Source: Nanobdellota archaeon | Lineage (GTDB): Archaea; Nanobdellota; Nanobdellia; Woesearchaeales; GW2011-AR4 | DNA length: 56,311 nt | Reading direction: 5' to 3' | Assembly: GCA_038046185.1 (NCBI GenBank) | Contig: JBBSWR010000219.1 | Coordinates: forward strand, 1-56,311 | Shown: one piece after another, positions 27,363 to 56,311 of the stretch | Position numbering within the stretch: position 1 is the stretch's first letter | Layout of the letters: every line of letters starts with the position of its first letter | Notes under the pieces: model-generated | Databases searched by the model: none | What the model saw: the letters and a program-made list of their open reading frames with translations, nothing else | What the model was told of the DNA's origin: nothing | Made by a program: the position numbers and the translations under genes

Positions 27363-27417
27363 GAAATGAATTTGTAAAGTTATCATATTAAATATTTGTA
27401 ATAAACAAGATAAACAA

Positions 27418-28470: not shown

Positions 28471-28508
28471 CAACAAACTTTTAGTGAGCAGTAATTAATG
28501 AAATAGTA

Positions 28509-29438: not shown

Positions 29439-29448
29439 ATATAATTAG

Positions 29449-30303: not shown

Positions 30304-30338
30304 GAAACATGAATCAAAATAACACAAATAATTAAAAT

Positions 30339-31904: not shown

Positions 31905-31942
31905 ACATATGAGATTAAATACATCAACAGGCATGAAATATC

Positions 31943-33064: not shown

Positions 33065-33072
33065 TCATATTT

Positions 33073-34218: not shown

Positions 34219-34227
34219 GGATAAAAA

Positions 34228-34644: not shown

Positions 34645-34713
34645 TGATGGTTTTATGTAATTTAATAAAATGAAACGATGCATATCAAATCATTAGTTAA
34701 ATAATATATGACA

Positions 34714-36614: not shown

Positions 36615-36618
36615 ATCG

Positions 36619-37725: not shown

Positions 37726-37745
37726 AGTTATCTATGTTTTATGGA

Positions 37746-38758: not shown

Positions 38759-38759
38759 T

Positions 38760-40022: not shown

Positions 40023-40038
40023 TATATTGATGTTTGAT

Positions 40039-40060
40039 TAAATACACATAAGTGTATTTA
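40039..40060. promoter_or_regulatory. Perfect 9-bp inverted repeat (taaatacac ataa gtgtattta) in a divergent intergenic region
   Basis: Read directly. It lies 17 nt from the minus-strand start (40022) and about 100 nt from the plus-strand start (40162). It could be a dimeric regulator site or a hairpin. Confidence 0.3.
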
Positions 40061-40161
40061 TTTTAATTAAAGAGGGAGATTAATATAAAAATAAATATTT
40101 CAAAAACTAATCCTACAGTTAATTAAATAGTTTATTAACTTTATAGATAGCTCTTATCTTT

Positions 40162-41184: not shown

Positions 41185-41273
41185 TTTTTTATGAAATTTA
41201 GATGAAACTCAAAACTCGGTTATGCTGTATAAAGAATTTAAAAACATAAAAACTAATCAATAAAAGTAAACCT

Positions 41274-42221
41274 ATGGAAAAAATTTTGATTACAGGTGGT
41301 GCAGGGTTTTTAGGCGCAAATTTAATTCATAGATTGCTTAAGTCAAAAAACGAAATAATTACAATTATTAAACCAAATTCAAATGAATGGAGAATTTCAG
41401 AAGTAAAAAATAAAATCAAAGTTTATCACATAGATATACTTAATGAAAGGAAAATTTCTAATACAATTAAAGAGATAAAACCTTCTTTAATATTTCATTG
41501 TGCAACATATGGGGTTAATCCATCTCAAGATAATTTTGGAAAAATCTTTCAAACAAATGTTTTTGGCACAAATAATATTTTTTCAACTATTCAAAAAATT
41601 AATTGTGTAAAGAAAATTATTAATTTTGGAAGTTCTTTTGAATATGCTACTCAAAAACTCCCCGTCAAAGAGACTGATATAATATCACCTAATACAGTTT
41701 ATGGTATTTCAAAAGCTACACAAACAAACTTAGCTCAATATTATGCAGAAAATTTAGGATTGCCCATAGTGACAGCAAGGATTTTTACGCCATATGGAAA
41801 ATATGATTCTAATGGAAGACTTTTTTCAGATTTAATGATTTCAGCAATAAAAGGAAGACAAATTAAATTAGGTTTTCAAGATTCGTTTAGAGATTTTATC
41901 CATATTGATGATGCAATAGATATTTTATTATTAATTGCTAAAGATATGAAGAATAAAACAGGTATTTTTAACATTGGGACCGGAAAAAAATCTTCTGTCA
42001 AACAAATTATGAGATTATGCGAAAAAAAAATGAAAATTAAATATCATGCATCATGGGGAAATGAGACTAATATACGAAAAATAGATAGATTTTCAGAAGT
42101 TGCAATAGCAGATATGCAAAAAACACAACATGTTTTTCACTGGAAACCAAAAATTACTATTGATGAGGGAGTTAAAAAAACGTATTCATGGTATTTGAAA
42201 AATTTTGAATTGTATAAATAA
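41274..42221 (+). CDS. Extended-SDR nucleotide-sugar epimerase/reductase (candidate CDP-4-keto-3,6-dideoxyhexose reductase or epimerase)
   Basis: KILITGGAGFLGANLIHRLL and YGISKATQ (YxxxK); 315 aa. Abuts convergent rfbH with zero intergenic bases. The role is inferred from context only. Confidence 0.7.
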   Translation: MEKILITGGAGFLGANLIHRLLKSKNEIITIIKPNSNEWRISEVKNKIKVYHIDILNERKISNTIKEIKPSLIFHCATYGVNPSQDNFGKIFQTNVFGTNNIFSTIQKINCVKKIINFGSSFEYATQKLPVKETDIISPNTVYGISKATQTNLAQYYAENLGLPIVTARIFTPYGKYDSNGRLFSDLMISAIKGRQIKLGFQDSFRDFIHIDDAIDILLLIAKDMKNKTGIFNIGTGKKSSVKQIMRLCEKKMKIKYHASWGNETNIRKIDRFSEVAIADMQKTQHVFHWKPKITIDEGVKKTYSWYLKNFELYK

Positions 42222-43580
42222 TTATTTTTTATTAAAAAATAAGTCAAAAGTTTGGATAACATAATCCAGCATTTCTTTTGTCAAACCTGGATAAACACCA
42301 ATCCAGAATGAATTGGATGTTATCATCTCTGTGTTTCTAAGCGAACCGTTAATTCGGTATTTGATATTTTTAAAATATGGTTGTTTTGTAATATTTCCTG
42401 CAAACAATGGTCTAGTATCAATTAATTTGGAACTGAGAAATTCAATAAGATCTTTTTTTGTGTAAGATAAATTCTCTTTAATTGTAATAGTAAATCCGAA
42501 CCATGAAGGATCACTGTTTGGTGTGGATTCAGGTAAAATTAAATTATCTTCAAATTGTTTTAATCCTTTTTTAAGATATGAAAAATTATTTTTTCTGGTT
42601 TGAATAAAATGTTCTAAATTATTTAATTGAGCTAATCCTACGGAAGCTTGCATATCAGTTATTTTAAAATTATATCCAAGATGTGAATAAATGAATTTGT
42701 GATCATACCCATATGGCATTTCACCGATTTTCCATTCGAATCTTTTTCCACAAGTATTATTGTGTCCAGGAGCACAAAAACAATCCCTACCCCAGTCTCT
42801 AAACGATTCTAAAATTCTTTTTAATTTTGGATCATCAGTGAAAACTGCTCCTCCTTCACCCATAGTTATATGATGAGCAGGGTAAAAACTCAGAGTTCCC
42901 AGATTACCAAATGTGCCAACAGATTTACCTGCAAAAAGACTACCTAATGCATCACAACAATCTTCAATTAGCCATAAATTATGATCTTTTGCTAATTTAC
43001 TGATTTTTTCTGCATCAAATGGATTACCTAGTGTGTGTGTAAGCATAATTGCCCGAGTTTTATCGGAAATTGCATCCTCCACAAGTTTGTAATTTGGAAC
43101 GTATGTAGGAATATCAACATCGATGAATACAGGCACTAAATTGTTTTGAATGATGGGATTAACAGTTGTAGGGAATCCTGCAGCCAAAGTTATGACCTCA
43201 TCATTAGGTAATAATCTACGTTCGCCCAATTGATCAGAGGTTAAGGCAGATAAAGCCAAAAGATTTGCTGATGAACCAGAATTAACAGTAATAACAAAAT
43301 TAGAATTTAGTTTTTTACCTAGAACTCGTTCAAATTCAGAATTAAATCGTCCTGAAGTTAACCAAAAGTCTAGAGAAGAAGAAACAAGCATTTGTAAGTC
43401 ATTTTCGTCAAAAACTTTTCCAGCAACTGGTACAATAGATTTACCTGGACAAAACGGTTTTCTAGAATGAGTGATGACCGAATATTTTTTAACTAAATTT
43501 AGAATGTCTTCTCGCAATTTTGCTGAATTTTCATTCGCATCTAACAAAGAATTCCTTAGAAAGTCATCTAATTCAATCAA
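42222..43580 (-). CDS. rfbH: CDP-6-deoxy-D-xylo-4-hexulose-3-dehydrase (E1; RfbH/DdhC/AscC-type, PMP- and [2Fe-2S]-dependent)
   Basis: SFYPAHHITMGEGGAV has His where aminotransferases have the PLP Lys. Cys209-X57-Cys267-X1-Cys269-X7-Cys277 (EDCCD...RDCFCAPGHNNTC) matches the E1 iron-sulfur motif as I recall it. Confidence 0.85.
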   Translation of the reverse strand: MIELDDFLRNSLLDANENSAKLREDILNLVKKYSVITHSRKPFCPGKSIVPVAGKVFDENDLQMLVSSSLDFWLTSGRFNSEFERVLGKKLNSNFVITVNSGSSANLLALSALTSDQLGERRLLPNDEVITLAAGFPTTVNPIIQNNLVPVFIDVDIPTYVPNYKLVEDAISDKTRAIMLTHTLGNPFDAEKISKLAKDHNLWLIEDCCDALGSLFAGKSVGTFGNLGTLSFYPAHHITMGEGGAVFTDDPKLKRILESFRDWGRDCFCAPGHNNTCGKRFEWKIGEMPYGYDHKFIYSHLGYNFKITDMQASVGLAQLNNLEHFIQTRKNNFSYLKKGLKQFEDNLILPESTPNSDPSWFGFTITIKENLSYTKKDLIEFLSSKLIDTRPLFAGNITKQPYFKNIKYRINGSLRNTEMITSNSFWIGVYPGLTKEMLDYVIQTFDLFFNKK

Positions 43581-43589
43581 TTTATCTAA

Positions 43590-44354
43590 TTACCAAATTT
43601 TCCAAGCAGCTTGATTTGATGTCCATAGTGATTCTAAATAATTTTTGTCACGAATTGTATCCATAGATTGCCAAAATCCAGTATGTTTGAAGGCTCCCAA
43701 TTGACCATTCTTTGAAAGAGTTTCTAAAGGTGTGCGTTCAAAAACAGTATTATCGTCTTGGATATAATCCATTATAGATGGTTCAAATACAAAAAATCCT
43801 CCATTGATCCAAGAATAATCACCTGATGGTTTTTCTTGAAATCTAGATACGTTGTTTTGTTCAATTTCTAAAATTCCAAATCTGCCGGGAGGTTGAACAG
43901 CTGTTAGAGTTCCAATGAACTTATTTTTTTGGTGAAAATCAATTAATTTTTGTATATTGACATTAGAAACGCCATCTCCATAAGTGAGACAAAAAGTATC
44001 ATCAACATAATTAGAAATGCGTTTAATTCGTCCACCGGTCATGGTATTTTCTCCTGTATCAACCAAGGTTATTTTCCATGGTTCAACATTTGAAGAATGG
44101 ATTTCTAAATTATTTTTTTGAATGTCAATAGTGATATCTGACATATGTAGATTATAGTTTGCAAAAAATTCTTTAATTTGATATCCTTTGTAACCTAAAC
44201 ATATAACAAATTCATTAATGTCATATGCGCTATAAATTTTCATTATATGCCACAATATTGGCATACCACCTATTTCGATCATAGGTTTAGGTTTTAGATA
44301 AGATTCCTCTGAAATGCGTGTTCCAATACCACCAGCCAAAATTACAGCTTTCAT
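43590..44354 (-). CDS. rfbF: Glucose-1-phosphate cytidylyltransferase
   Basis: MKAVILAGGIGTRISEESYLKPKPMIEIGGMPILWHIMKIYSAYDINEFVICLGYKGYQIKEFFANY is near-canonical RfbF. Confidence 0.9.
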   Translation of the reverse strand: MKAVILAGGIGTRISEESYLKPKPMIEIGGMPILWHIMKIYSAYDINEFVICLGYKGYQIKEFFANYNLHMSDITIDIQKNNLEIHSSNVEPWKITLVDTGENTMTGGRIKRISNYVDDTFCLTYGDGVSNVNIQKLIDFHQKNKFIGTLTAVQPPGRFGILEIEQNNVSRFQEKPSGDYSWINGGFFVFEPSIMDYIQDDNTVFERTPLETLSKNGQLGAFKHTGFWQSMDTIRDKNYLESLWTSNQAAWKIW

Positions 44355-44532
44355 AGAAGTTAATTCTTAGAATCCATATTAAAATAGTATGATTTAAAAT
44401 ATTCATAGAAGAGTTAGTGCTGTTTTTATGTGTAATTACCTAATAATTAGAATTTTTGATACTAAATTGTTGTATTCACGTTTGGAAATTGTAATAAGTT
44501 AATTACTGTTTTATTTTGTAGTAAATAAACTT

Positions 44533-45480
44533 ATGAAAAAATCAAATTTGATTAAAAATAATGGATTTAGTATCATAATTATCATCATGATAACATATGT
44601 GGGAATTGTTCTTTATTCCGACATTAATAAAATATCTTCAATTTTTTACAATATAAAATACGAATTTTTAGTAATAATAATTGGATTGCAAATGATTTCA
44701 TTTTCTTTAAGAAGTTATAGACAAAAAAAATTCTTAGAAAGCTCCGGTATAAAATTATCATTTTGGGAAAATTTTAAAATTTGTCTTGCAGGAATGTCGA
44801 TGATAGTAACTCCCGGCGGAGCAGGGATGTTAATTAAATCACATTTTTTAAAAAGAAAATATGGGTTTTCAGTTTCAAGAACAGCTCCAATGATTCTTGC
44901 AGAAAGATATCATGATTTTTTAGCTGTTACGACAATTTTGTTACTTTCATTAATAGTAGTGTTCTCAATACACGTGGTAATTAGTGGAACTGTTGCATTA
45001 ATTTTACTATTTTTAGTATATTTAATAATTAGAAATCATGATTGGTTAGAAAAATTTGAACAAACAATTATTCGAAAAAAAATTTTTCAAAAAATCTTTC
45101 CATCAGATTTAAACATATCAGACTCGGTGAATTCATTAAAAACTCCTAGAATTATTGGATTCGGATGGATAATTAGTACAATTTTATGGATCATTGATGC
45201 TTTTGCAATCTTTTTTGGATTTGTTGCACTCGATGTTGATATTGGAGTTGTTGAGTCAATTCAAATATTTTTTTCATCATTAATTTATGGCATTATTTCA
45301 TTTTTGCCTGCAGGAATAGGTGTAACTGAAGGTATTTTTATTGGGTTATTACTTAAACATGATGTAAAATTGTCAATAGCTACTGCATTAATACTATTTA
45401 TAAGATTAACCACAGTTTGGTTTCTAACTTTTGTAGGATTTGTAACGATGAAGTTTTTTCTTGGAAATGAAAAAACCTGA
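44533..45480 (+). CDS. UPF0104 / LPG-synthase-TM family membrane protein (flippase-like domain)
   Basis: About 8 TM segments with two PGG/PAG-G-x-x-E type motifs (IVTPGGAGMLIKS, LPAGIGVTEGIF), typical of this family. Confidence 0.65.
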   Translation: MKKSNLIKNNGFSIIIIIMITYVGIVLYSDINKISSIFYNIKYEFLVIIIGLQMISFSLRSYRQKKFLESSGIKLSFWENFKICLAGMSMIVTPGGAGMLIKSHFLKRKYGFSVSRTAPMILAERYHDFLAVTTILLLSLIVVFSIHVVISGTVALILLFLVYLIIRNHDWLEKFEQTIIRKKIFQKIFPSDLNISDSVNSLKTPRIIGFGWIISTILWIIDAFAIFFGFVALDVDIGVVESIQIFFSSLIYGIISFLPAGIGVTEGIFIGLLLKHDVKLSIATALILFIRLTTVWFLTFVGFVTMKFFLGNEKT

Positions 45481-45530
45481 AATAGAGATTGAGTTTTAAA
45501 GAGATAGTCAGAATAACAAAAAGAAAACAA

Positions 45531-46547
45531 ATGGGAAAAATTTACCTTACTTTAGCATTATCATTTTTAGTTCTATGTATAGTTAATCTAGTTTTTGTTA
45601 CATTAAGTCTTATTTTTTTGGCTATCAATGGTTTACAAGCACTACTTAATGGAATGAGTTTTGTAGAAAGAATTTACTTTTCTATGTACATTAAATGGAT
45701 TTTATTAGCTGACTTGATTTGGTTATGTTTTGCATTAATGTTTTTACTTAAAAGAAAACGCTATAGGACTGGATCATCAGATTATCTTAATAACAATCCA
45801 ATTATAAATCCAAAAATCACAATTGTAATTCCAGCTTATAATGAAGAAAATAATGTTGCAAATGTAATTAATGATTACAAGTCACAGAAACATGTAGAAA
45901 ATGTCATAGTAGTTGATAATCATAGTAGTGATCAAACGGTATCTATTGCAAAAAAATCTGGTGCGCTTGTTATTGAGAAAAAAGAGAATAAAGGATTTGC
46001 TGATTCATGTTTGCAGGGGTTAAAAAAAGCTCTAGAAACAAATGCCAATGTAATTGTTTTAACAGAATGTGATAGAACCTACGTAGGACATGATATGGAA
46101 AAACTAGTACCTTATCTAGATGAATGTGATATGGTGATAGGAACTAGATTAATTCAAGTGTTAACAGAAAAAAATAACCAAAATGGTATGTTCAATACTT
46201 GGGGTAATTTTTTTCTTGCAAAATTGATTCAATTAAAATATTTTAGTTTGTTACATATGGGAATAGTGTCATTTACTGATGTAGGATGTACTTACAGATG
46301 TATTAGAAGAGATGCATTAGAAAAACTAATCAATAAAATGATTGAAGACTATAACAGGAATATTGATCCTGATGGCTGGGCATTTATACCGTATTTTAAT
46401 ATGATCGGAATTGAAAATGAGCTCAAAATTGTTGAAATCCCGATCACATTCAGAAAAAGACATGGTGAATCAAAATCACAGGCAAATAAAAAGACAAAAG
46501 GAATTTTGTATGGATTAAGGTTTATCTGGTTCATAATCAAAACCTAA
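45531..46547 (+). CDS. GT2 glycosyltransferase with N-terminal TM helices, paralog B
   Basis: The ORF track starts at 45489, but ATG 45531 gives MGKIYLTLALSF, colinear with the paralog A start MGKLYLSIFISF. ITIVIPAYNEENNV, VVDNHSSDQTVSIAKKSGALVIEKK. Confidence 0.8.
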   Translation: MGKIYLTLALSFLVLCIVNLVFVTLSLIFLAINGLQALLNGMSFVERIYFSMYIKWILLADLIWLCFALMFLLKRKRYRTGSSDYLNNNPIINPKITIVIPAYNEENNVANVINDYKSQKHVENVIVVDNHSSDQTVSIAKKSGALVIEKKENKGFADSCLQGLKKALETNANVIVLTECDRTYVGHDMEKLVPYLDECDMVIGTRLIQVLTEKNNQNGMFNTWGNFFLAKLIQLKYFSLLHMGIVSFTDVGCTYRCIRRDALEKLINKMIEDYNRNIDPDGWAFIPYFNMIGIENELKIVEIPITFRKRHGESKSQANKKTKGILYGLRFIWFIIKT

Positions 46548-46560
46548 ATTGAGAATCTGT

Positions 46561-48528
46561 TTATTTTACAATATTATGATGAATTTTATATAAAACAGAA
46601 CCAGTTTTATTTGATTTATAAAGAAACTCAAAATTTGAGGGTATTTTTGGATTAGCTGGATCAGATAGAATCATCAAGTCATATGCTTGAGTTTGATTCA
46701 AGTTTTGAGGAATGGAATGTGGTGGAACTGGTTGATACACAATATAATCAGGAATAGGATGTATAGAATTGAATCGATCATTTGGAAAACTGAATATATT
46801 TGATATGTATATATCATAACTTGACCAATTTTTTCTTGAAATATAGTTATCTAATGTATCATTAGTAACACCTTCTGTTAGATATGCGTGAAGAAATTTA
46901 CTGTGTGCATAATAAGAATATCCTGAAAATCTCGCCATGACGTATTTATTTTCAATATTTTCTTCATGTGATAGAATATCTCCTATTTCTTCATATTCAA
47001 GTCCTGAAGGCAATACATCATCATTATTAAAAACTCTGATTGACTGATTATAGTAGGAGTTTGTAGTTATTTGTGATATTGAAGATTGATCAAGTAAGTT
47101 ATTTTCATAAAGATGTAGATTCAGAAATCCATAAGAAAAACCTAATTGTAAAACGATAATAATTATAACTGATGAAAAAATAATTTTGTTTGAGTGAATT
47201 TTCCTAAAGATTTTTTGGGAGACAGATGGAAGTGTTTTGAGGAAAAATATAGAGCTGAGAGTAGGAATAATTAACCACATTGGTAAAAGTTGATAGGGAG
47301 CAGCTAGACTGACAATAGAGATCATTGAGAAATAGATCACAGACAAAATTAGAAGAGGTAGAAGCTGTTTGCTAAAAGTTCGTAAATAAAAAACACCTAA
47401 TACAATCAGAGGTATGATGAAAATTGCAAAAAAGTGTTCTGTAATTTGACCAAATATTAAAACCAAAATAAATACTGAAAGTGTAGAAAGTGCAACAATT
47501 AGTAATGTGTGTTTATTCATATTTTGACGAGTTAGATATAGAAATCCGCCTAAAACTGGAATAAATCCTATGAATGGTACAACGGTAACAATAGACATAT
47601 TCATAAACGAATTGAAATTAAAAAGATGGCTTGCATTTCTAAAAAAGACATTATGGAGATAATTTTTCAAAAATAAATTAAAATCAGTGGTTATTCCAAC
47701 TGATCCAGGTTTTGGATCTGTCAATTGTGTTTCAATTATTTTTTCTTGCCATTCAGGAGTTTGATATTTATTAAACCAAAGCATGTAGAGATCAGTGTCA
47801 TTATCAAAAAGGGTTCCATGAATTGTATAATTATAAAAGATCATAGGACTAAATGCAGCTAAGAAAGTTAAACCTAAAATTACACAAAAAAAGATATTTT
47901 GTTTAATATTATTTCTATGAAGAATTACAAAAATCAATAATGACATCAATACAGGAATGCCTTGAAATCGAATTAGAGATGCGGCACCAAGAAGAGAGCC
48001 AATTATCAATAGATCAGGTATACGTATTGATTTTCTAGTAATAAAAAATAGAGAAATAAAAATGAGAAAAATTGAGAATAGTTCATTTACGGATTCGATT
48101 GAAAGTAGGTGGAGTCTTGGATTTATCGCCACAAATAATTGTCCCAATAGTGCAATTTTTGTATCAAAAACATTTCTAATTATAAAAAATGACACAAAAA
48201 CTATTCCAGTACCACTTAGAAGCGAGATTATTTTTCCAGTAAGAAATGGATCATTAAAAATAGGATTTAACATAACATGCAAAATTGGACCTCCTATTGG
48301 AGCGTCAGGAATCTTTACATTTTGTCCATTTCCGGACAGAATATCAACACCCCAATTATAGTACAATATACCATCTGTTTCAAACCAATAGGGATGATGA
48401 AAGAATGTAATGTATGAAATGGTAATTAGAAAAATTAAAGTGAGTAATATAGGATATTTTATATCGTCAAATCTTCGGATTAAACAAATAACATTTGGAG
48501 AGTGATTTGATTTGCAAGATGTGTTCAT
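46561..48528 (-). CDS. GT-C-like polytopic membrane glycosyltransferase with C-terminal extracytoplasmic domain (intact, fused form)
   Basis: 655 aa. FFHHPYWFETDGILYY first-loop acidic motif and more than 10 TM segments. The about 190-aa soluble C-terminal domain is homologous to 34714..35295. Confidence 0.6.
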   Translation of the reverse strand: MNTSCKSNHSPNVICLIRRFDDIKYPILLTLIFLITISYITFFHHPYWFETDGILYYNWGVDILSGNGQNVKIPDAPIGGPILHVMLNPIFNDPFLTGKIISLLSGTGIVFVSFFIIRNVFDTKIALLGQLFVAINPRLHLLSIESVNELFSIFLIFISLFFITRKSIRIPDLLIIGSLLGAASLIRFQGIPVLMSLLIFVILHRNNIKQNIFFCVILGLTFLAAFSPMIFYNYTIHGTLFDNDTDLYMLWFNKYQTPEWQEKIIETQLTDPKPGSVGITTDFNLFLKNYLHNVFFRNASHLFNFNSFMNMSIVTVVPFIGFIPVLGGFLYLTRQNMNKHTLLIVALSTLSVFILVLIFGQITEHFFAIFIIPLIVLGVFYLRTFSKQLLPLLILSVIYFSMISIVSLAAPYQLLPMWLIIPTLSSIFFLKTLPSVSQKIFRKIHSNKIIFSSVIIIIVLQLGFSYGFLNLHLYENNLLDQSSISQITTNSYYNQSIRVFNNDDVLPSGLEYEEIGDILSHEENIENKYVMARFSGYSYYAHSKFLHAYLTEGVTNDTLDNYISRKNWSSYDIYISNIFSFPNDRFNSIHPIPDYIVYQPVPPHSIPQNLNQTQAYDLMILSDPANPKIPSNFEFLYKSNKTGSVLYKIHHNIVK

Positions 48529-48584
48529 AGTTATTAATAATCAATTGATGTGGGTTATAAAATAATATAGAAAACATCAGAGTG

Positions 48585-49694
48585 CTATTTTTTCATTTCA
48601 ATACTATTAGCTAAATATTGTGTTTCTTCAAGATCTTTACGAATTCCCTCTATTGTTATTTCTTCAATATCCACCAAATATTTGTAATTGGTTAATTCAC
48701 TGTAAGTGGGTTCTCTCCCCAATAATTCTTTGTATAATTCTTTGATAATTCCTCGCGTATCATCAAATCTTTTCAAATCTAATGCCTCTTGTGATTTTAG
48801 CAGTTCTTTGCGCAATTCAGATTTGGTCAAATATCCTTCTTCTAGCAGTGTAGACCAATAACGTAGTCCTTTTTCATCTACAGAACGACGTAAAATTTCT
48901 TGATAAAGTGAATCTACAAAAAGTTTGGTTTCAGGATTTATCTCATTTAGTAATTTTGGATTGTTTGATGCAGTTAGTGTACCAAATTCTTTTGAAGATA
49001 GTAATTCAGTTCGGATGTCATTTTCAGTAAATGTTCCATTTCTAAGAAGATTAGAATAGTATATCAATCCCCATTTATCCGCAGGTCGCAGAAGGATTTC
49101 CCGGTATATGTCATCTACTGTTCTTTCAGATGCATCAAACTTTGAAAAACCATATTGAATAAAGCTGTTAACAACTGTGTCCAAAGCATGCTCCAAATTT
49201 GATTTTGGTATAAATACAAATGGGCTTAGAAGTCCTTTTAATTTTAGTTCAACATCAGTTGTTATTTTGACTTTTGTATCAAGATCTTCAAATTTTTGAG
49301 TGATTTTAGTATTTACAGCATCTCCATCTAACACTTCAACAATATGAAAATCATGTGGAGAAAATGTATGTCTTACAAGAATTGAATTAGTAATTCCTTG
49401 TTCTGAAATAATTTCTCGTGCAATTATTACATTTTTAGTTTTATTAATTATAGTAACAGAGAGTATATTTTTTGGTAAAATTTTTGGATATTTTTCAACG
49501 TCATAAAATAAATTAAAAAGTAGTTCCTTATCACCATCAACTATTTTTGTAGTATGCAATTCAGAAACTGTGTGAGGAGTTAGATCAGGTAGTGTTATTT
49601 CATCATATAAGGATGAAGTGTAGAGAATCCCTATGAAAAAAGAAATAGCAAGAAAACCATAAAATGAAATTATGATTTTGTCACTTTTGTTCAT
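48585..49694 (-). CDS. N-terminally TM-anchored protein: SRPBCC-like (polyketide cyclase/START-like) region + three tandem DUF4214-like repeats
   Basis: TM segment IIISFYGFLAISFFIGILY. ELLFNLFYDVEKYPKILP is a SRPBCC-like start. Three repeats: IYREILLRPADKWGLIYYSNLLRNG, LYQEILRRSVDEKGLRYWSTLLEEG, LYKELLGREPTYSELTNYKYLVDIE. Confidence 0.5.
   Translation of the reverse strand: MNKSDKIIISFYGFLAISFFIGILYTSSLYDEITLPDLTPHTVSELHTTKIVDGDKELLFNLFYDVEKYPKILPKNILSVTIINKTKNVIIAREIISEQGITNSILVRHTFSPHDFHIVEVLDGDAVNTKITQKFEDLDTKVKITTDVELKLKGLLSPFVFIPKSNLEHALDTVVNSFIQYGFSKFDASERTVDDIYREILLRPADKWGLIYYSNLLRNGTFTENDIRTELLSSKEFGTLTASNNPKLLNEINPETKLFVDSLYQEILRRSVDEKGLRYWSTLLEEGYLTKSELRKELLKSQEALDLKRFDDTRGIIKELYKELLGREPTYSELTNYKYLVDIEEITIEGIRKDLEETQYLANSIEMKK
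48621..49121 (-). repeat. Three tandem protein-level repeats of about 45-60 aa (DUF4214-like) within CDS 48585..49694
   Basis: Residues about 192-237, 258-303 and 315-358 share the (I/L)Y(R/Q/K)E(I/L)L(x)R...GL.YW..LL..G......(I/L)R.ELL.S.E pattern. Confidence 0.6.
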
Positions 49695-49743
49695 TATTTA
49701 ATCAAATTGTTCATATCCGGATATACTTTTGTTTACTAGATGG

Positions 49744-50742
49744 TCATTGTCTTATATTACTTATTAAATTCATTTTTTCTAATTCTTTTGTACTCAAAAC
49801 TCTCTTAGAGTTTACATCCTTATGCTTGGAAATCAAATAACCCATATTTGAAAATAGCCAAAAAACACTTTTGATTGCTGTACCAAAATCAGGTTTTTGT
49901 GCAATTGTGTCTTCAAACTTTGTAGATGTGACCATCGTCTTTCCGTTAATTTTATAATCAAACCAAATTTTGATCTCCCGTGTTCCATAAATTATAAAAA
50001 ACAAAAATAAATTTTTAAAAACCAATGGAAGTTCAAAATTTGTAATTTTCATTGATAGTTGGTTTTTAATTCCATGAAATGTGGATTCTGATCTGAATTT
50101 TTTTGTTGTAATACCCCCTACATGATATACAATGGACTTTGGAACAACGATACTCTCATACCCTAAAATCCAGGAGCGCCATCCCAAATCAACATCTTCA
50201 AAAGAAAATACAAATTTTTCATCAAATCCTCCTAGTTTGGAAAAGATCTCTTTTCGTATCAGCATTGAAGCTGCTCTTGGACTGAATATTCTTCGTGTTT
50301 GATTGATTTCTTGTTTGGAATTGTAAACCATACCAATCTTGTCTATAAAATCACCACTGGAATCAATAATTCCATTGGGTTTTAACAACAAACTTTGGCA
50401 TATTGCAATTTTGTTATTTTGTTTGATTTCAAGAACAAGTTCCATAAGAAAATTAGGTGTTACTATTGTGTCATTGTTTAAAAATAAGAGAAATTCGCCT
50501 TTTGCAGTTTTGGAGCAAATGTTGTTTGGTTCAGCAAATCCATAATTAGTATCAAGTGAAATGATTAGAACGTGTGGAAAATTATGTTTTATGAATTCAA
50601 CACTATCATCAGAAGAATTATTATCAATTACAATTATTTCAATAGGCTCATATAGAATTTTATTTAATGAGTTAAGACATTTTTCAATATGATCTTTTCC
50701 ATTAAAATTTACAATTATGATTGAAACCAGAGGAAGTTCCAT
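49744..50742 (-). CDS. GT2 glycosyltransferase (soluble, rhamnosyl/galactosyltransferase-like)
   Basis: VSIIIVNFNGKDHIEKCLNSL, VIDNNSSDDSV, LLFLNNDT, EDVDLGWR motifs. Confidence 0.85.
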   Translation of the reverse strand: MELPLVSIIIVNFNGKDHIEKCLNSLNKILYEPIEIIVIDNNSSDDSVEFIKHNFPHVLIISLDTNYGFAEPNNICSKTAKGEFLLFLNNDTIVTPNFLMELVLEIKQNNKIAICQSLLLKPNGIIDSSGDFIDKIGMVYNSKQEINQTRRIFSPRAASMLIRKEIFSKLGGFDEKFVFSFEDVDLGWRSWILGYESIVVPKSIVYHVGGITTKKFRSESTFHGIKNQLSMKITNFELPLVFKNLFLFFIIYGTREIKIWFDYKINGKTMVTSTKFEDTIAQKPDFGTAIKSVFWLFSNMGYLISKHKDVNSKRVLSTKELEKMNLISNIRQ

Positions 50743-50785
50743 GTCAGTTATCTAAAACTTTAGTTTAATATAGAATGTCATAAGA

Positions 50786-51685
50786 CTATCGTTTTGAGCG
50801 TATTGAGTTCAGATAAAATACTAGAATACGTTCAGATATGTTTGACGGTAATATTTTAAGAAGTTTTAATCCGTATAACATGACTATTTTTAAGAGAGAG
50901 TATGTTTTTTTATAATTTTTTAATGAATTAATGTACAAAAATTTCTCATCATTTGAAAGTTTAGATAGGATCTCATTTTTAATTTGTTCAAGAAAGTTTA
51001 GTGTTGATAAAATATTATTATGCGAAAGCTGTTTACTATGAATTCTATACTGTATTAGGGATTTCTGAATAAGAAAAAATTTCATTTTATACAAGATTGC
51101 TGCTTGTAAAAAAAAGTCATAATCTATTGCTACAGGATCATCCAAGTTTCTAAAAATACATCCTTTTTGAAATAATGATGATGGAATTAGTGTAGTATTT
51201 ACATTAATTTGTTGACCATCAAGTAGTCTAATGTTGTAATCAAATTCTGAAAGATTGTTATAATCAGATTCAGAAAAGTCCCGGATTTTTTTTCCTTTTT
51301 CATCAATTATCTCCCAATTTGAATAAACTATTGTATTATCAGGGAATTTTTTGATTTGATTAACAAGTGTTTCAATTGCATTTGGAAACATTACATCATC
51401 AGGTGAAAACCATTTGATCCATTTACCACTGGCTTTGCTTAGTCCATTATTCAATGCACTTGCCAATCCCTGATTTTTCTGAGAGATGACCTGAATTTTA
51501 TCAGAATACTGTTTTAAAATTTCTTTAGAGGGATCAGTTGAACCGTCATCAATACAGATAACTTCAATATTTTTGTAAGTTTGATTAATTACAGAATCAA
51601 GAGAGTATTTTAGAAACTTTTCAGAGTTATAGATAGGAATTATGATTGAGACAAGTTCATCAGATATATCGGTTAGTTCAGTCAT
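50786..51685 (-). CDS. GT2 glycosyltransferase
   Basis: VSIIIPIYNSEKFLKYSLDSVINQTYKNIEVICIDDGSTDPS is the canonical GT2 N-terminus; FSPDD is a DxD-like motif. Confidence 0.85.
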   Translation of the reverse strand: MTELTDISDELVSIIIPIYNSEKFLKYSLDSVINQTYKNIEVICIDDGSTDPSKEILKQYSDKIQVISQKNQGLASALNNGLSKASGKWIKWFSPDDVMFPNAIETLVNQIKKFPDNTIVYSNWEIIDEKGKKIRDFSESDYNNLSEFDYNIRLLDGQQINVNTTLIPSSLFQKGCIFRNLDDPVAIDYDFFLQAAILYKMKFFLIQKSLIQYRIHSKQLSHNNILSTLNFLEQIKNEILSKLSNDEKFLYINSLKNYKKTYSLLKIVMLYGLKLLKILPSNISERILVFYLNSIRSKR

Positions 51686-51707
51686 GTATATTCATGTACA
51701 AAAATAT

Positions 51708-52718
51708 TCAAATTCTTTTTTTGATGTAATCTATAGAATGTACAGGAGAAGGATCAGTTTTTGATAAAATTGCCCTATAAATTGACGCATAATCAAGCAG
51801 ATAGATTAAAGCAATAATCTTTGTCAAGATATTGCCTGGAACAGAACGCACCTCTCTAAAATCAATATTATTTTCCACAAAGTATTCTCTGACGATATCA
51901 AATCTTTCCTTGGTTTTGACATAATCATTATTGCCTCGCAACAATATTGGTTGTACTGATGATGGTTTTTCCCAAGAGACTATACCGTTATGACATGCCT
52001 CTACAATATCTTCTATAATAGCATGAGTTTTTACATTTTCCTGTAGAGATGACTTGAATCTAGTAGCAACTGGTTGTAATCCGTGAGGATAATAAATCAA
52101 AGGTATTCCTGAAATCCAACGGGCAAGATTGATTGCAGGATTTGAATCAGACAGATTTTGAGATGAAATCTGTTTTTGTGTTTTATTAAGCTCATTTAAT
52201 GATTCTATGATGTCATTTTTTTTAATTGGAAGCATTGAATTTAACGTTTTTAATATTGAATATGTGAATGTACAGAATGAAGATCTGGGAGAATGTGTTT
52301 GTTCAATCTTTCTAAAATGAATTTTATTTTTATTGCAGAATTCTTCCATCTTGCCTCCAGAAAAAAATGCAATAGAATTGCAATCTAGTTTCTTTGTAGA
52401 ATCCAATACAGTCATAGTCTCATTAGTATTACCAGAAATACTTGTGGCAATTACTAGAGTGTTTTTATCTACTGTTTTTGGTAAAAGATAACCTTTGACT
52501 AGAGATACGTGTATATCACTTTTAGACAGTATTGAGGAAAATAAATCGCCTATTGCGCCGGAACCTCCCATTCCAGCAAATACAATATGATCAATATTAT
52601 CAAAATGTATTGGCTCTAGATCAGATTCGTATGCTTTATGTGAAATTTCGGGCCACATATCATATATTTTGTACATCCCACTTAGATCATATTTTTCTAA
52701 AATTTCTCTAGTTAGCAA
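51708..52718 (-). CDS. Bifunctional phosphoglucose/phosphomannose isomerase (SIS-domain, archaeal PGI/PMI type)
   Basis: TTG start. IVFAGMGGSGAIGDLF and VIATSISGNTNET SIS motifs; about 336 aa. It supplies Man-6-P/Fru-6-P for sugar activation. Confidence 0.75.
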   Translation of the reverse strand: MLTREILEKYDLSGMYKIYDMWPEISHKAYESDLEPIHFDNIDHIVFAGMGGSGAIGDLFSSILSKSDIHVSLVKGYLLPKTVDKNTLVIATSISGNTNETMTVLDSTKKLDCNSIAFFSGGKMEEFCNKNKIHFRKIEQTHSPRSSFCTFTYSILKTLNSMLPIKKNDIIESLNELNKTQKQISSQNLSDSNPAINLARWISGIPLIYYPHGLQPVATRFKSSLQENVKTHAIIEDIVEACHNGIVSWEKPSSVQPILLRGNNDYVKTKERFDIVREYFVENNIDFREVRSVPGNILTKIIALIYLLDYASIYRAILSKTDPSPVHSIDYIKKRI

Positions 52719-52851: not shown

Positions 52852-54129
52852 ATGAAAGAAAATAACGATAAAAGTCAGTCATTTTCTTCAGTTTCAAGGA
52901 ATATCCCTTTGATAGTCTTTTTGTTCTCAATTGTTATAGTTATGATTAGCTTTGTATCAGTTATTTTTCCTGCATTAATTGTAGGCTCTAATACAACAAT
53001 TATCCCAAATATTCAACCAGTACTGCCCAATCTATTTGAATTAGGAGTATGGTCGTATGGCGTTATAATTTCATCAATTGTTATTTTTGGATTATTGTAT
53101 TTATTTTATAAAAATAAACTATCAAGTTCAATTTCCAAACTATTTAAAAAAATATTTAATTTTGAAGTTTCAAAAAAGACTGCATTTATCACATTAGTTG
53201 TTATTTTAGTAGTCTATGTAGGATTTACAACCTCAGAATTATGGCAGCAAGAAACTTGGGAAGACTACCAACCAATAAAGAAAAGACTGCAGGAATCAAT
53301 TAGAGACAACAGATGGACTATCGAAGATGCCATTAATGGAAACCCAAATTATCCAAAAGATGAACCACATGTAACGTATACACTGTTATTGATTTCCTTA
53401 AAGTTATTTGGAAATGATAAGATAGTTCCTTTTCTTGCAAGTATTGGTTTACTAGTAATAACTTATTTGATTACTACAAAAATTACTCAAAAAAGATTTG
53501 CTGGAATTGTTGCTTTTATTATTATTATTCAGAGTAATTTGTTTTTAACTTATGACACTTCGGCTACATATACCAATTTTTGGGTTTTATTTTATCTGTT
53601 ATCTCTGTATGCAGTGTATAGATTCTGGCAACTTTCCCCAATATCATATCTTATTTCAATTCCAGCAAAGGTGCTAACTGTAGCATTTTTACCCATGTCA
53701 ATTTACTTTATTTTAAGATCAGATATATCAAAAAAGAGTAAAATTGTTGTTACATTATCTACCATAGCAATCATAGCTGCAGTTGGCATTACTGCAATGT
53801 CTATGAGCTCAGGTGGTGAGGCAATGCAAGAAAGTTTTGATGCAAAAGAATTTTGGATGGGTTTTACATCTTTTTCGTACCAGCTAAGAACAGATGGACT
53901 AGTCTTATTATTTATGATTCCATTAATGGTAGGATTGTTCCTAGTATCAAAAAGAGGAGTAAAACACGGAGAGTCAATCATGGTATTAATCTCAGGAATA
54001 CTTCTAATAGTTCCAATACTAACTGGTTTTACAAATCAGACAAACCAGCCGTATAGATTCATGCCACTGGTAGTATTTTTTGCAATAGGTGTTGGAGTAT
54101 TACTATCAAAAAGAGAGTCTAAGATATAG
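52852..54129 (+). CDS. Polytopic membrane protein, possible GT-C/ArnT-like glycosyltransferase
   Basis: 425 aa with about 10 hydrophobic segments. EPHVTYTLLLISLKLFGNDKIVPFLASIGLLVITYL resembles the PPLxYWL...FG...R block of GT39/GT83 enzymes. Weak call. Confidence 0.4.
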   Translation: MKENNDKSQSFSSVSRNIPLIVFLFSIVIVMISFVSVIFPALIVGSNTTIIPNIQPVLPNLFELGVWSYGVIISSIVIFGLLYLFYKNKLSSSISKLFKKIFNFEVSKKTAFITLVVILVVYVGFTTSELWQQETWEDYQPIKKRLQESIRDNRWTIEDAINGNPNYPKDEPHVTYTLLLISLKLFGNDKIVPFLASIGLLVITYLITTKITQKRFAGIVAFIIIIQSNLFLTYDTSATYTNFWVLFYLLSLYAVYRFWQLSPISYLISIPAKVLTVAFLPMSIYFILRSDISKKSKIVVTLSTIAIIAAVGITAMSMSSGGEAMQESFDAKEFWMGFTSFSYQLRTDGLVLLFMIPLMVGLFLVSKRGVKHGESIMVLISGILLIVPILTGFTNQTNQPYRFMPLVVFFAIGVGVLLSKRESKI

Positions 54130-54559
54130 GTCTGATAAAAGTCCACACTGATTCCATGGTATCACCTGGAATTGTAAGATATCCATCATGAGCAAATCTA
54201 GTAAGTAACACATGCTTTTCATCCACACTATCAGATAGTATGGTACTTGCTACTAGTTCTTCAGAATTAAATGATTGTGATTGTGCTCTTCGAATAATTT
54301 GGTATTGTTGTCCATCAATTGTAATGACAGGATCATTTCCTCGAGACGCTTCATAGTTCAAGAACGATTCAAGTGCAGGTGCATTAAGATATGAAAATTT
54401 AGTTGATTCAAGATAGACAACAAGAGTACCGTCAGAATTTCTTATAGTTGTTTGGACAAACACAAAGATGCTATCGCCAAGATGGGTTTGGGTTACGCCA
54501 AAAACACTACTTGATGGAATCAACAAAAATGCAAATCCAAATAAAATTAATTTATTCAT
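54119..54559 (-). CDS. Small secreted or membrane-anchored protein of unknown function
   Basis: N-terminal signal-like segment MNKLILFGFAFLLIPSSSVFG; 146 aa with no recognisable motif. The 3' end overlaps the convergent gene by 11 nt. Confidence 0.5.
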   Translation of the reverse strand: MNKLILFGFAFLLIPSSSVFGVTQTHLGDSIFVFVQTTIRNSDGTLVVYLESTKFSYLNAPALESFLNYEASRGNDPVITIDGQQYQIIRRAQSQSFNSEELVASTILSDSVDEKHVLLTRFAHDGYLTIPGDTMESVWTFIRPIS

Positions 54560-54584: not shown

Positions 54585-55925
54585 TTAATTTACTGGTCGA
54601 GTTATCTGTTTTCCAAGTAATTCATTATAGAGACTTATAGCGTCAGATTCATCTTTTGGTCCAACTATAACTGCAGAGCCCTTTTTCATAAAACTAACTG
54701 ACATGTCATTTGTTCGAAGAGACAATCCAAATTTGCCCTGATTCTCTATTAGGAATCCTTTTTGTTTTGCAATATTAGTTACCATATTCACATCAAGATC
54801 AAATGTACTGGTAGGTGTAATTGAAAAAGTCCTCTTGCCTTGGTTTCTTCCACATAGTTCCTCTAGAATCAATTCCTCCTTTACAATCTCTTCTTTTTTT
54901 CCAGAACCGCACACAGGACACTCTTCTGCTCTAAATGTACGAGTAAATGTAAAATCTAGATTCTCAATATCTACATGTAAAATTTTGTCAGATAGACTGG
55001 GCTTTTTGCCTAACACCACTTTGACTGTTTCAGACACTTCAATTCCCCCAACTATAGACAAAATAGACGGATGGACTCCCTCAATGCTACATGTAGGCAT
55101 GGAATCCTCATCAAGGGCAGGAAACATGCAGTAATAACATGCGCTGGTGCCAGGCAATATGGTAAATATCTGTCCAGATACTCCTACTGCAGCTCCTGTA
55201 ACAAAAGGAATACCAAACTTTACACATGCTTTGTTGAGAGCATATCTGGCATTGACGCTATCAAGTGCATCAACTACAACATCACAACCTTCTACCACCT
55301 CAAGTGCGGTATAATCATTTACAGAAACAGCTAGTGCCTCTATTTTACAATCAGGATTTAGTTTTTGTAGTTTCTTTGCAGCAACTTCCACTTTTACTTG
55401 TCCAACGTCATCTTCATCAAACATTGTCTGGCGATGCAAATTTGACAGTTCAATTACGTCTCTATCTACGATACGTAGAGTTCCAACACCCATTGCAGTC
55501 AATCTTGTAGTAATTGGATTACCAAGACCACCTACTCCAACAACACAGATTTTGGCGTTCTTTAGTTTTAGTTGTCCTTGGTATCCAATCTCTTCAAGCA
55601 TTACCTGTCGAGAAAATTTGTCTAATTCCTTTTTTGATAGTTCATCTGAACCACCAGCAACTGCTGGCAAGATGTATACTTCGTCTCCATCTTTGAGAAC
55701 AGTATTCATGCCATCAGAAAACTTGGCGTTTTTTCCATTAATGTAAATGTTAATTAGAGAACGTGGAGTTCCATCACCTTCTAAAACTCGTCTCTTAAAG
55801 TCATCACCCATAACTTGGGAGATTTTTGAAAATGCATCAGTTAGAGAATCAGCTGATATCTCTGTCTTTTTTTCTCCTCCACCTTGATTTAGCACTGATG
55901 GAATTGTAAATATGATATTTGTCAT
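54585..55925 (-). CDS. Fusion of a MoaD/ThiS/SAMP-like beta-grasp domain (internal Gly-Gly) with an E1-like ThiF/MoeB/UbaA adenylyltransferase and an unassigned C-terminal domain
   Basis: Residues 1-92 end in LKDGDEVYILPAVAGG. Then follow ICVVGVGGLGNPITTRL (nucleotide loop), DRDVIELSNLHRQ, a CYYC...CPVC Zn tetrad and PTCSIEGV (candidate active Cys). About 95 further residues are unassigned. Confidence 0.8.
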   Translation of the reverse strand: MTNIIFTIPSVLNQGGGEKKTEISADSLTDAFSKISQVMGDDFKRRVLEGDGTPRSLINIYINGKNAKFSDGMNTVLKDGDEVYILPAVAGGSDELSKKELDKFSRQVMLEEIGYQGQLKLKNAKICVVGVGGLGNPITTRLTAMGVGTLRIVDRDVIELSNLHRQTMFDEDDVGQVKVEVAAKKLQKLNPDCKIEALAVSVNDYTALEVVEGCDVVVDALDSVNARYALNKACVKFGIPFVTGAAVGVSGQIFTILPGTSACYYCMFPALDEDSMPTCSIEGVHPSILSIVGGIEVSETVKVVLGKKPSLSDKILHVDIENLDFTFTRTFRAEECPVCGSGKKEEIVKEELILEELCGRNQGKRTFSITPTSTFDLDVNMVTNIAKQKGFLIENQGKFGLSLRTNDMSVSFMKKGSAVIVGPKDESDAISLYNELLGKQITRPVN

Positions 55926-55926
55926 G

Positions 55927-56311
55927 CTAGTTTACTACCGCCGATATTTCTGTGATATTTGCTTTCATTACTTTTGGTTTTGGTAAAACTTCCATTATTG
56001 CCTCAGTTGCCTTTAATCCATTTCCAGTAACATAACACACTACAGAATCATTTTTGTCAATTTTTCCCTGCTCGACCATCTTTTGAAGTACAGCAACAGA
56101 GACACCACCTGCAGGCTCTGTAAATATCCCCTCAGTCCTAGCCAAAAGCAATATTGCATCTAAAATTTCTTTATTGTTGCATTCTTCTGCAAACCCATTG
56201 TATTGTGCTAATCGTTTTAGTACATATCTACCATCTCCAGGATCACCTATTGCCAGACTCTTTGCAATGGTATCAGGATGCTCTACTGGAATCACTTCTT
56301 TGCTGTTTTTC
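55927..56311 (-). CDS. thrC: Threonine synthase, C-terminal about 128 aa (5' end beyond the window end)
   Basis: TIAKSLAIGDPGDG...ARTEGIFTEPAGGVSVAVLQKMVEQGKI...VCYVTGNGLKATE is the typical PLP fold-type II ThrC C-terminus. The stop TAG lies 1 nt before the ATG of the downstream gene. Confidence 0.8.
   Translation of the reverse strand, partial: KNSKEVIPVEHPDTIAKSLAIGDPGDGRYVLKRLAQYNGFAEECNNKEILDAILLLARTEGIFTEPAGGVSVAVLQKMVEQGKIDKNDSVVCYVTGNGLKATEAIMEVLPKPKVMKANITEISAVVN

Follow-up and report, generated by a model that had tools for sequence, protein, structure and literature searches.

The window analysed here comprises positions 1 to 56,311 of contig JBBSWR010000219.1 (assembly GCA_038046185.1), 56,311 nucleotides (nt) of DNA deposited as that of a Nanobdellota archaeon. 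Near the end of this window, on the minus strand, the gene of a ThrC-family pyridoxal-phosphate (PLP) enzyme is followed after a single nucleotide by a gene in which a ubiquitin-like (Ubl) sulfur-carrier domain is fused to an E1-type activating enzyme (E1). These two genes and the pathway that they may serve are the subject of our analysis. The following features were recognised:

55927..56311, minus strand: 3' end of the gene of the ThrC-family PLP enzyme, 127 codons and the stop codon TAG, cut by the window edge; matches to PALP and thrC models
55923..55929, minus strand: gene junction TAG-C-ATG (stop of the thrC-like gene, 1 nt, start of the fusion), read from the sequence
55650..55925, minus strand: beta-grasp MoaD/CysO-like sulfur-carrier domain, amino acids (aa) 1-92, ending in LPAVAGG; matches to Pfam ThiS and TIGR01687
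55650..55655, minus strand: codons of Gly91-Gly92, the predicted cleavage and activation site, judged by invariance in fusions
55620..55649, minus strand: linker, aa 93-102 (SDELSKKELD), which passes into the usual N-terminal E1 helix; the start length varies among relatives
54906..55619, minus strand: ThiF/MoeB/UbaA-type E1 adenylation domain, aa 103-340, by Pfam ThiF and Foldseek
54612..54872, minus strand: C-terminal TATA-binding-protein (TBP)-like domain, aa 352-438, by structural model, Foldseek and PRK12475

Both the reading of the minus strand and the list of open reading frames (ORFs) give a single unbroken ORF of 446 aa at 54585..55925. An earlier note on this DNA had claimed that the Ubl domain is fused in frame to a ThiF/MoeB/UbaA domain without a stop after the Gly-Gly (GG) and that the fused gene starts 1 nt past the stop of a thrC-family gene. 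Both claims are borne out by the sequence: the GG codons ggt ggt at 55650..55655 are followed in frame by tca gat gaa (Ser-Asp-Glu), and the junction consists of TAG (55927..55929), C (55926) and ATG (55923..55925). Residues 77-92 of the Ubl domain are LKDGDEVYILPAVAGG, and the frame continues after the GG codons with SDELSKKELDKFSRQ. In its encoded form the GG is followed by 354 further residues, and the free C-terminal carboxylate that defines carriers of the MoaD/ThiS/CysO type is absent. Besides the GG tail, the motifs named in the note are all present, namely GVGGLG (aa 130-135), CYYC (263-266), PTCSIEGV (277-284) and CPVC (336-339). Pfam recognises ThiS at aa 54-92 (E 1.7e-8) and ThiF at aa 104-337 (E 4.8e-72, 242 bits against a cut-off of 28), and the NCBIfam model TIGR01687 (moaD_arch) covers aa 18-92. 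The best sequence match of the Ubl domain in the PDB is CysO of Mycobacterium tuberculosis (3dwg_C, E 1e-10, aa 3-92). The Ubl domain's match with the SAMP1 equivalog NF041918 is weak and stays below the cut-off (43 against 60 bits), as does that of the fusion to the UbaA equivalog NF047750 (209 against 450 bits). No rhodanese domain was found on the E1 in the Pfam scan.

The AlphaFold2 model of the fusion has a mean confidence (pLDDT) of 84 and a predicted template-modelling score (pTM) of 0.71. Over aa 1-90 of the Ubl domain the pLDDT is 74-94 per 10-residue block, and just three segments of the model fall below 50: the GG junction (89-93), the inter-domain linker (344-348) and the C-terminal tail (440-446). 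The E1 domain is of the ThiF/MoeB/UbaA type by motif (GxGxxG loop, arginine finger RxxRQ, catalytic Asp, two CxxC) as well as by fold, with Foldseek superpositions on the ThiF/MoeB structures 1zud, 1zfn and 1jw9 at target-normalised TM-scores of 0.95-0.96 and root mean square deviations of 1.2-1.9 Å. In an alignment of 20 sequences R106, G130xG132xxG135, D154/D156, N162, R165, Q166, K178, D222 and the zinc cysteines 263/266/336/339 are invariant, and C279 is nearly so. The anatomy given in the earlier note, Ubl plus E1, is correct for these two domains and overlooked a third at aa ~352-438. This domain is modelled with a pLDDT of 87.9, and its top Foldseek matches are TBP entries (probability 0.93-0.98, E ~0.05; none at E <= 0.001); the alignment with the NCBIfam model PRK12475 reaches aa 438. 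TBP-like C-terminal domains are common in unfused prokaryotic E1-like proteins (Makarova & Koonin 2010, PMC2948915).

The identical fusion protein is encoded on three contigs. More than 120 database clusters with 88-100% identity and the same length and domain content are named Nitrosarchaeum or Nitrosopumilus, and from these relatives the window derives from a Nitrosopumilaceae archaeon. The metagenome-assembled genome (MAG) that carries protein P0001, identical to the product of 54585..55925, is labelled 'Nanoarchaeota archaeon' at NCBI, and the close relatives of the protein all belong to Nitrosarchaeum or Nitrosopumilus; judged by these similarities, the binning or the label of this contig is probably wrong. 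Among 1.84 billion representative proteins searched, Ubl-E1 fusions occur in many clusters at 50% identity, with a TBP-like tail, a rhodanese tail or none. A profile search with a diverse fusion alignment again returned close Nitrosopumilaceae only. One thaumarchaeal fusion of 599 aa (P0121, L008 10001..11800, 59% identical) carries an additional C-terminal extension of TPR repeats, ~150 aa past the TBP-like domain.

The GG is invariant in 20/20 divergent fusions, down to 26% identity and including bacterial ones that are 26-40% identical, and is likewise kept in bacterial Ubl-E1-rhodanese fusions encoded beside JAB genes. Among species-level genomes of Nitrososphaeria, all 76 fusion ORFs continue in frame after the GG, with a small residue in the following position (Ser in 60 fusions, Ala in 13, and Asp, Glu or Gly in one each). 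In these 76 fusions the Ubl domain is conserved to nearly the same degree as the E1 domain (0.78 against 0.79). The linker between the GG and RYSRQ measures 9 residues in Nitrososphaera and ~30, acidic ones in three other loci (L067, L009, L034), as expected of a spacer. The earlier note had reckoned with orthologs that lack the GG or the linkage to thrC; the GG is retained in 76/76 and the linkage is conserved. A lost stop codon or a frameshift that joins two genes by sequencing or assembly error can practically be dismissed, as the same fused ORF recurs in hundreds of independent assemblies, including the complete genome of Nitrosopumilus piranensis and MAG chromosome records. The window holds no sign of such an error, and this artefact is ruled out by recurrence; the only hint of one comes from a relative, with a frame change at a GGGGG run just past the GG. 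In that relative, Ca. Nitrosocaldus schleperae (L051 7480..7600), the carrier ORF extends 15 residues beyond the GG and the E1 lies in another frame; either the carrier truly has a short extension here, or the homopolymer has given rise to a frameshift. In the related Nitrosocaldus SKYG19 (L034) the two parts are fused through a long linker. Given the recurrence of the fusion, its invariant GG and the conservation of its Ubl domain, we consider it real and selected.

The ThrC-like gene belongs to the same conserved unit. N. piranensis has, in succession, the his operon, a 188-aa gene on the opposite strand, the ThrC-like gene (406 aa), the fusion and a 146-aa ORF. A scan with the ThrC-like alignment, using one genome per species, yielded 80 loci, all from Nitrososphaeria and spanning Nitrosopumilus, Nitrosarchaeum, Nitrosotenuis, Nitrosopelagicus, Nitrosotalea, Nitrososphaera and Nitrosocaldus. 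Ubl and E1 follow 3' of the thrC-like gene on the same strand at every one of these loci whose contig is long enough; two contigs are too short, one ending at thrC (L083) and one inside the Ubl (L030). The estimated gap between the thrC-like and the carrier gene lies between -14 and +54 nt in 88 related loci and between -4 and +3 nt in 65 of them. Three further contigs, thaumarchaeal or from the TACK group, carry fusions of 59%, 41% and 39% identity that the ThrC-like gene adjoins or overlaps. On a fourth such contig (L009) the two genes are ~4 kb apart with mobile-element and toxin-antitoxin genes between them, and ATP sulfurylase and 3'-phosphoadenosine-5'-phosphosulfate (PAPS) reductase are encoded ~7 kb upstream. 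The insertion on this contig (11419..15027), which separates and inverts the fusion and the ThrC-like gene, carries Cas12f/TnpB-like, aspartic protease-like and MazE/PIN genes. TusA is a neighbour at another locus (L010) and MetE at a further one (L007). These occasional neighbours (TusA, MetE, ATP sulfurylase with PAPS reductase) suggest a link to the metabolism of sulfur and methionine; thrB, TusA and MetE were each met at a single locus. Across the genomes compared, the two-gene operon is conserved throughout the Nitrososphaeria, the ammonia-oxidising archaea (AOA).

Sister lineages encode the same three parts without fusion, i.e. a thrC-like gene, a carrier of 88-113 aa that ends with GG and a stop codon, and an E1. 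In a groundwater thaumarchaeon (L041) the carrier ORF ends in LPAVAGG-TGA and the E1 gene, beginning with MPLSENEMERYSRQ, follows 9 nt further on. In a Thermoproteota MAG (L094) an 88-aa carrier ends in FIPIVAGG-TAA directly next to the E1 gene, and the operon runs on into a homoserine kinase of equivalog level (304 bits against a cut-off of 194). O-phosphohomoserine is the product of homoserine kinase. Archaeoglobus fulgidus encodes a 404-aa arCOG01434 protein, an 88-aa MoaD and a 267-aa E1 consecutively and unfused (PMC2948915). The fused Ubl domain is thus the orthologue of a free carrier that was once encoded between the genes of the PLP enzyme and the E1. By this comparison, we regard the fusion as a derived loss of the stop codon, and the unfused GG-stop orthologues together with the CysO match lead us to consider the carrier a true substrate of the E1.

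Protein-thiocarboxylate-dependent synthesis of homocysteine from O-phosphohomoserine is described for MetM/MetO of Streptomyces albulus (Hasebe et al. 2024, Appl Environ Microbiol 90:e01247-24). In that system, a S-adenosylmethionine (SAM) riboswitch is reported upstream of metM-metO, a ThrC homologue stands beside a MoaD/ThiS-like GG carrier as in the window, the system requires an E1 (MoeZ) and a JAMM peptidase (Mec), and MetM is 'often misannotated' as threonine synthase. The window shares the adjacency of a ThrC-like PLP gene to a MetO-type GG carrier, with a gap of 1 nt. We compared MetM and ThrC on the full-length 406-aa orthologue of N. piranensis, to which the ThrC fragment of the window is 87% identical. 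This protein is similar to threonine synthases of known structure and has a CxxC..CxxC zinc ribbon at its N-terminus. Its best match in a tblastn search of the plasmid collection PLSDB, which includes whole chromosomes mislabelled as plasmids, is a gene of Nonomuraea gerenzanensis (45.5% identity over 98% of the length including the zinc ribbon, 333 bits), whereas the other thrC matches listed reach at most 226 bits and 32-38% identity. Directly upstream of the Nonomuraea gene lies a SAM riboswitch (RF00162, 68.7 bits against a gathering score of 44.4), and 25 nt downstream a MoaD-like ORF of 91 aa ends in IIPAVAGG-stop. With riboswitch and carrier, the Nonomuraea locus shows the arrangement reported for metM-metO of S. 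albulus. The metM-metO locus could be found in PLSDB because whole chromosomes are among its records; three chromosome-sized 'plasmids' (NZ_LT559118.1, Nonomuraea, 11.85 Mb; NZ_CP093325.1, Bacillus, 5.5 Mb; NZ_CP030101.1, Listeria, 2.9 Mb) are probably mislabelled.

The earlier note had called for a phylogeny of the ThrC protein. Run with the full-length N. piranensis orthologue, a neighbour-joining tree places the Nonomuraea metM-like gene as sister to the archaeal clade (44-48% identity), and the enzymes of Bacillus, Listeria and Microbacterium (hom-thrC) form a separate group that is 32-36% identical to the archaeal and Nonomuraea enzymes (six references). The thaumarchaeal and Nonomuraea proteins have the motif NPT[FYH]SFKDR in common; canonical ThrC has NPTGSFKDRG. 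From this sequence affinity, the ThrC-like gene product is probably a MetM-type, O-phosphohomoserine-dependent homocysteine synthase. The earlier note had identified the enzyme as threonine synthase; as it groups with a SAM-riboswitch metM-metO pair and not with canonical ThrC, this label is probably a wrong annotation, or at best an incomplete one.

We propose that the operon makes homocysteine from O-phosphohomoserine via a protein thiocarboxylate, in a route of the MetM/MetO type, and assign this a probability of roughly 55%. The polyprotein would be cut after Gly92 by a JAMM/JAB peptidase encoded elsewhere, of the class that in the CysO and MetO pathways trims carrier precursors and hydrolyses the adduct of carrier GG and amino acid. 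An E1 dimer would then adenylate the freed GG carboxylate, and a persulfide donor would turn the adenylate into the thiocarboxylate. This donor would be a stand-alone rhodanese, TusA or a cysteine desulfurase, since the E1 itself has no rhodanese domain. The MetM-like PLP enzyme would eliminate phosphate from O-phosphohomoserine and add the thiocarboxylate sulfur at C-gamma, whereupon homocysteine would be released and the carrier recycled. The earlier note had already suggested a protein-thiocarboxylate-dependent sulfur amino-acid route from an O-phospho precursor. Operon conservation, the unfused GG-stop carriers, the homoserine kinase and the MetM affinity support this idea; such a route is more than a hypothesis, as MetM/MetO was described in 2024.

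Several points weigh against our proposal. The N. piranensis orthologue passes the thrC equivalog TIGR00260 (289 bits against a cut-off of 167); this model has no discriminating power here, as the Nonomuraea metM-like protein also passes it (270 bits). No MetM-specific NCBIfam model was among the matches listed for the archaeal and Nonomuraea proteins. The MetM assignment builds on a single actinomycete reference, which is defined by its context and is not the S. albulus sequence itself, and the reference set of the tree is small. If AOA genomes have no second, canonical thrC, the ThrC-like enzyme must also make threonine. A hidden Markov model for JAB found no such gene within ~6-10 kb of the operon at ~90 thaumarchaeal loci (~1 Mb of flanks). 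The model with the fewest assumptions is cleavage by a JAMM peptidase whose gene lies elsewhere, and the cleavage itself, like the sulfur donor, the product and a service of the carrier in tRNA thiolation, is something that we infer.

The question of threonine leads to a second explanation, in which the enzyme is the sole ThrC-family member of the cell and bifunctional, making threonine with water and homocysteine with the thiocarboxylated carrier, and Ubl and E1 act as in our proposal. This is possible and in our view unlikely. It would agree with the passed thrC cut-off, with the homoserine kinase in the L094 operon, with the single 'threonine synthase' acquisition that Sheridan et al. list at the origin of AOA, and with the threonine synthase activity in vitro that was reported for a cyanobacterial MetM homologue encoded beside metO. 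Nonomuraea speaks for the opposite, since its record holds the metM-like gene plus two further ThrC-homologous places, and specialisation is thus the known pattern. We speculate, tentatively and with more doubt, that a single AOA enzyme of the ThrC family splits O-phosphohomoserine between threonine and homocysteine, and that the split is set by the supply of E1-attached carrier licensed by the JAMM cut. If so, proteolytic release of the carrier would be a regulatory gate on the flow of sulfur to methionine, and possibly to tRNA thiolation, in very abundant microbes.

In a third explanation, an ordinary threonine synthase lies beside an unrelated Ubl/E1 system for tRNA 2-thiolation (Ncs6/NcsA-type) or SAMP-like conjugation, and their adjacency reflects compaction or co-regulation. 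We consider this rather improbable. The adjacency extends from Nitrosocaldus to Nitrosopumilus, to TACK relatives at 39% fusion identity and to A. fulgidus, mostly with overlapping or abutting genes, which is far beyond what compaction predicts; the ThrC-like enzyme forms a clade with the SAM-riboswitch metM-metO pair and not with canonical ThrC; and the cut-offs of the UbaA and SAMP1 equivalogs are not reached. What such a system would explain are the weak matches of the Ubl to the SAMP1 and moaD_arch models and the action of archaeal JAB proteins as desampylases (PMC4443979). Moreover, the fusion is the sole ThiF-type E1 in Nitrosopumilus maritimus and Cenarchaeum symbiosum, where PP-loop ATPases are present (PMC2948915), so that tRNA thiolation probably also depends on it. 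The same carrier and E1 may therefore serve tRNA thiolation besides homocysteine synthesis, being the sole such E1 in these genomes.

Other roles of the carrier are limited by gene content. N. maritimus and C. symbiosum have no ThiS, no genes of molybdenum cofactor (Moco) biosynthesis, one ThiF-type E1, which is the fusion, and no free-standing Ubl; two MoaD-type Ubl domains occur in these genomes, both fused, in Ubl-E1 and in Cgi121-Ubl (PMC2948915). With no ThiS, no Moco genes and one E1, there is no other candidate substrate for the E1 and no role in molybdopterin synthesis. A molybdopterin role was ruled out, as Thaumarchaeota have no Moco genes, and likewise a thiamine role of the ThiS/ThiF type, as there is no thaumarchaeal ThiS and archaeal ThiS genes are not associated with thiamine genes (PMC2948915).

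Adenylation by an E1 requires a free glycine carboxylate, and any carrier function of the fusion thus requires cleavage after Gly92. That no JAMM/JAB gene is visible, as the earlier note had remarked, holds for the window ORFs that were scanned; it does not hold for the genomes, as N. maritimus and C. symbiosum each encode two JAB proteins (PMC2948915). Those of N. maritimus (133 and 130 aa) map to 0.65 and 1.13 Mb, a long way from the fusion gene at 1.42 Mb (PMC2948915). A JAB gene lies immediately 5' of two bacterial Ubl-E1-rhodanese fusions, 'CysO fused to MoeZ' (L013 3491..6278, L011 5675..7572); at one of these two loci, on a Gemmatimonadales-like contig, the operon consists of Rrf2, CysM-like PALP, JAB and the fusion. 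MetO-like carriers in annotated plasmid records of Tsukamurella and Ralstonia adjoin a metallopeptidase gene, labelled M67 in Tsukamurella, and GapMind describes Mec as the carrier-cysteine hydrolase that is needed for the maturation of MetO. With JAB genes elsewhere in these two archaea and adjacent in the bacterial fusions, processing is the economical answer. The low model confidence at the GG junction and the small size of the residue behind the GG speak for processing as well. Self-cleavage by an N-to-O acyl shift at Ser93 was considered and is unlikely, given Ala at this position in 13/76 fusions and Asp, Glu or Gly in three more.

The alternative is a fusion that is never cleaved, with the Ubl as a regulatory or docking module for the PLP enzyme or with an undescribed activation in cis; we think this very unlikely. 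The absence of a JAB gene from the thaumarchaeal operon would fit, and a non-carrier role was proposed for a different Ubl on the ThiF of Campylobacter, which co-occurs with free ThiS (Iyer, Burroughs & Aravind 2006, PMC1779556). Against it stand the established E1 chemistry with its need for a free carboxylate, the invariance of the GG across fusions of 26-40% identity, which is the signature of a carrier C-terminus, the orthologous free-standing GG-stop genes, the JAB genes adjoining bacterial fusions, and the finding that the thaumarchaeal genomes of the 2010 survey have no other free Ubl gene. The earlier note had left room for a non-substrate role or cis activation; we found nothing in support of these, and the invariant GG, the GG-stop orthologues and the bacterial JABs oppose them.

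Compared with MetM/MetO, the carrier of the window is fused to its E1, the tail of the E1 is TBP-like and not a rhodanese, the JAMM gene is unlinked and, the host being an archaeon, there is no SAM riboswitch. The operon shares ~45% identity with its actinomycete homologue in the enzyme and 29% in the carrier, and the archaeal homocysteine activity is a prediction. The CysO-CysM-Mec-MoeZ system of M. tuberculosis resembles our proposal in using an O-phospho amino acid, a carrier thiocarboxylate, a fold-type II PLP enzyme and a JAMM peptidase that cuts after GG. In contrast to CysM, which is like O-acetylserine sulfhydrylase and has ~308 aa, the enzyme of the window is ThrC-like, with ~406 aa and a zinc ribbon; its presumed substrate is phosphohomoserine instead of phosphoserine, and the fusion has neither a rhodanese nor an adjacent JAMM. 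A CysM-type enzyme, an adjacent JAMM and an E1 rhodanese all occur in two bacterial relatives (L013 and L014); the operon of the window has none of the three, with no JAB gene in the flanks of its relatives or among the window ORFs scanned. In Wolinella succinogenes, HcyS-HcyD-HcyF-MetY reportedly perform thiocarboxylate-dependent homocysteine synthesis, with a JAMM peptidase that removes the residue after the carrier GG; this system differs from ours in using O-acetylhomoserine and a fold-type I enzyme (MetY), and in a single-residue extension in place of the 354-aa enzyme found here.

A further archaeal Ubl-E1 fusion of 337 aa with conserved GG (L012 5298..10230) lies in an operon of HcyBio/COG1900, NIL-ferredoxin, an AbpE-like gene, the fusion and a gene that resembles cysteine desulfurase; an ABC ATPase and a SufBD-like gene come next. 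The arrangement suggests that a protein thiocarboxylate may be a source of sulfur for the methanogen-type homocysteine route, too.

The family itself has been listed before. The 'Ubl-E1-TBP in Thaumarchaeota' of Makarova and Koonin is exactly the fusion family of the window, and they list the proteins of N. maritimus (GI 161529056, 443 aa) and C. symbiosum (CENSYa_2046) beside an arCOG01434 (ThrC) gene; no function is given there, and the E1 neighbourhoods are described as offering no new strong links (PMC2948915). N-terminal Ubl fusions to ThiF have been described in bacteria (PMC1779556); unlike the fusion studied here, the fused Ubl of the Campylobacter type is distinct from ThiS and coexists with free ThiS. 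The SAMP1/2-UbaA-HvJAMM1 system of Haloferax (PMC4443979) is similar in its MoaD-type GG Ubl, its single multi-role ThiF-type E1 and its Ubl-removing JAMM, and differs in its free-standing SAMPs and in the Moco pathway that SAMP1 serves, which Thaumarchaeota do not have.

Two genes adjoin the operon within the window, and the remainder has a different content:

54119..54559, minus strand: ORF of 146 aa with a hydrophobic N-terminus, 3' of the fusion; no Pfam match, and no NCBIfam match for its N. piranensis orthologue
52852..54129, plus strand: multi-pass membrane protein of 425 aa whose end overlaps the 146-aa ORF; conserved, no Pfam match

The 146-aa ORF follows the fusion in synteny in N. 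piranensis and in groundwater contigs, and does so invariably in Nitrosopumilaceae; nothing ties it to the system. Positions 1..52718 are apparently for the most part a large island for cell-surface glycan biosynthesis (e.g. 25952..26668, 26646..27446, 13226..13942, 43590..44354, 50786..51685), with genes for a NeuB-family nonulosonic-acid synthase, a CMP-sugar cytidylyltransferase, NTP-sugar transferases, an RmlD/epimerase, a hexapeptide acyltransferase, a glycosyltransferase and a SIS/PGI-like isomerase. A GFO/IDH/MocA oxidoreductase is apparently split into two overlapping minus-strand ORFs in different frames (37746..38417 and 38405..38758), with the NAD-binding N-terminal domain in an ORF of 117 aa and the C-terminal domain in one of 223 aa. 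A frameshift, a pseudogene or an error of the assembly could lie behind this.

In conclusion, the architecture has been known since 2010 and the pathway since 2024, and the mechanism itself would not be new; the twist here is a carrier that is made as a polyprotein with its own E1. In the papers that came up in searches on MetM/MetO or on Nitrosopumilus, we found no connection between AOA and MetM/MetO; the primary MetM paper may mention archaeal homologues. Full-text literature searches returned no description of the homocysteine route of AOA, and in the GapMind supplement a methionine entry is missing for N. maritimus. AOA are globally abundant and prototrophic and have streamlined genomes. 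The fusion offers a natural example of a ubiquitin-like carrier that is synthesised in one polyprotein with its E1, and it bears on the origin of Ubl-precursor processing by JAMM/MPN+ peptidases. If our proposal is true, AOA use the MetM/MetO thiocarboxylate route, and the annotations 'threonine synthase' and 'ThiF' in many AOA genomes and metagenomes would need revision. Metabolic models of these organisms would then have to include, for the synthesis of methionine, a JAMM peptidase, an E1 and a persulfide donor.

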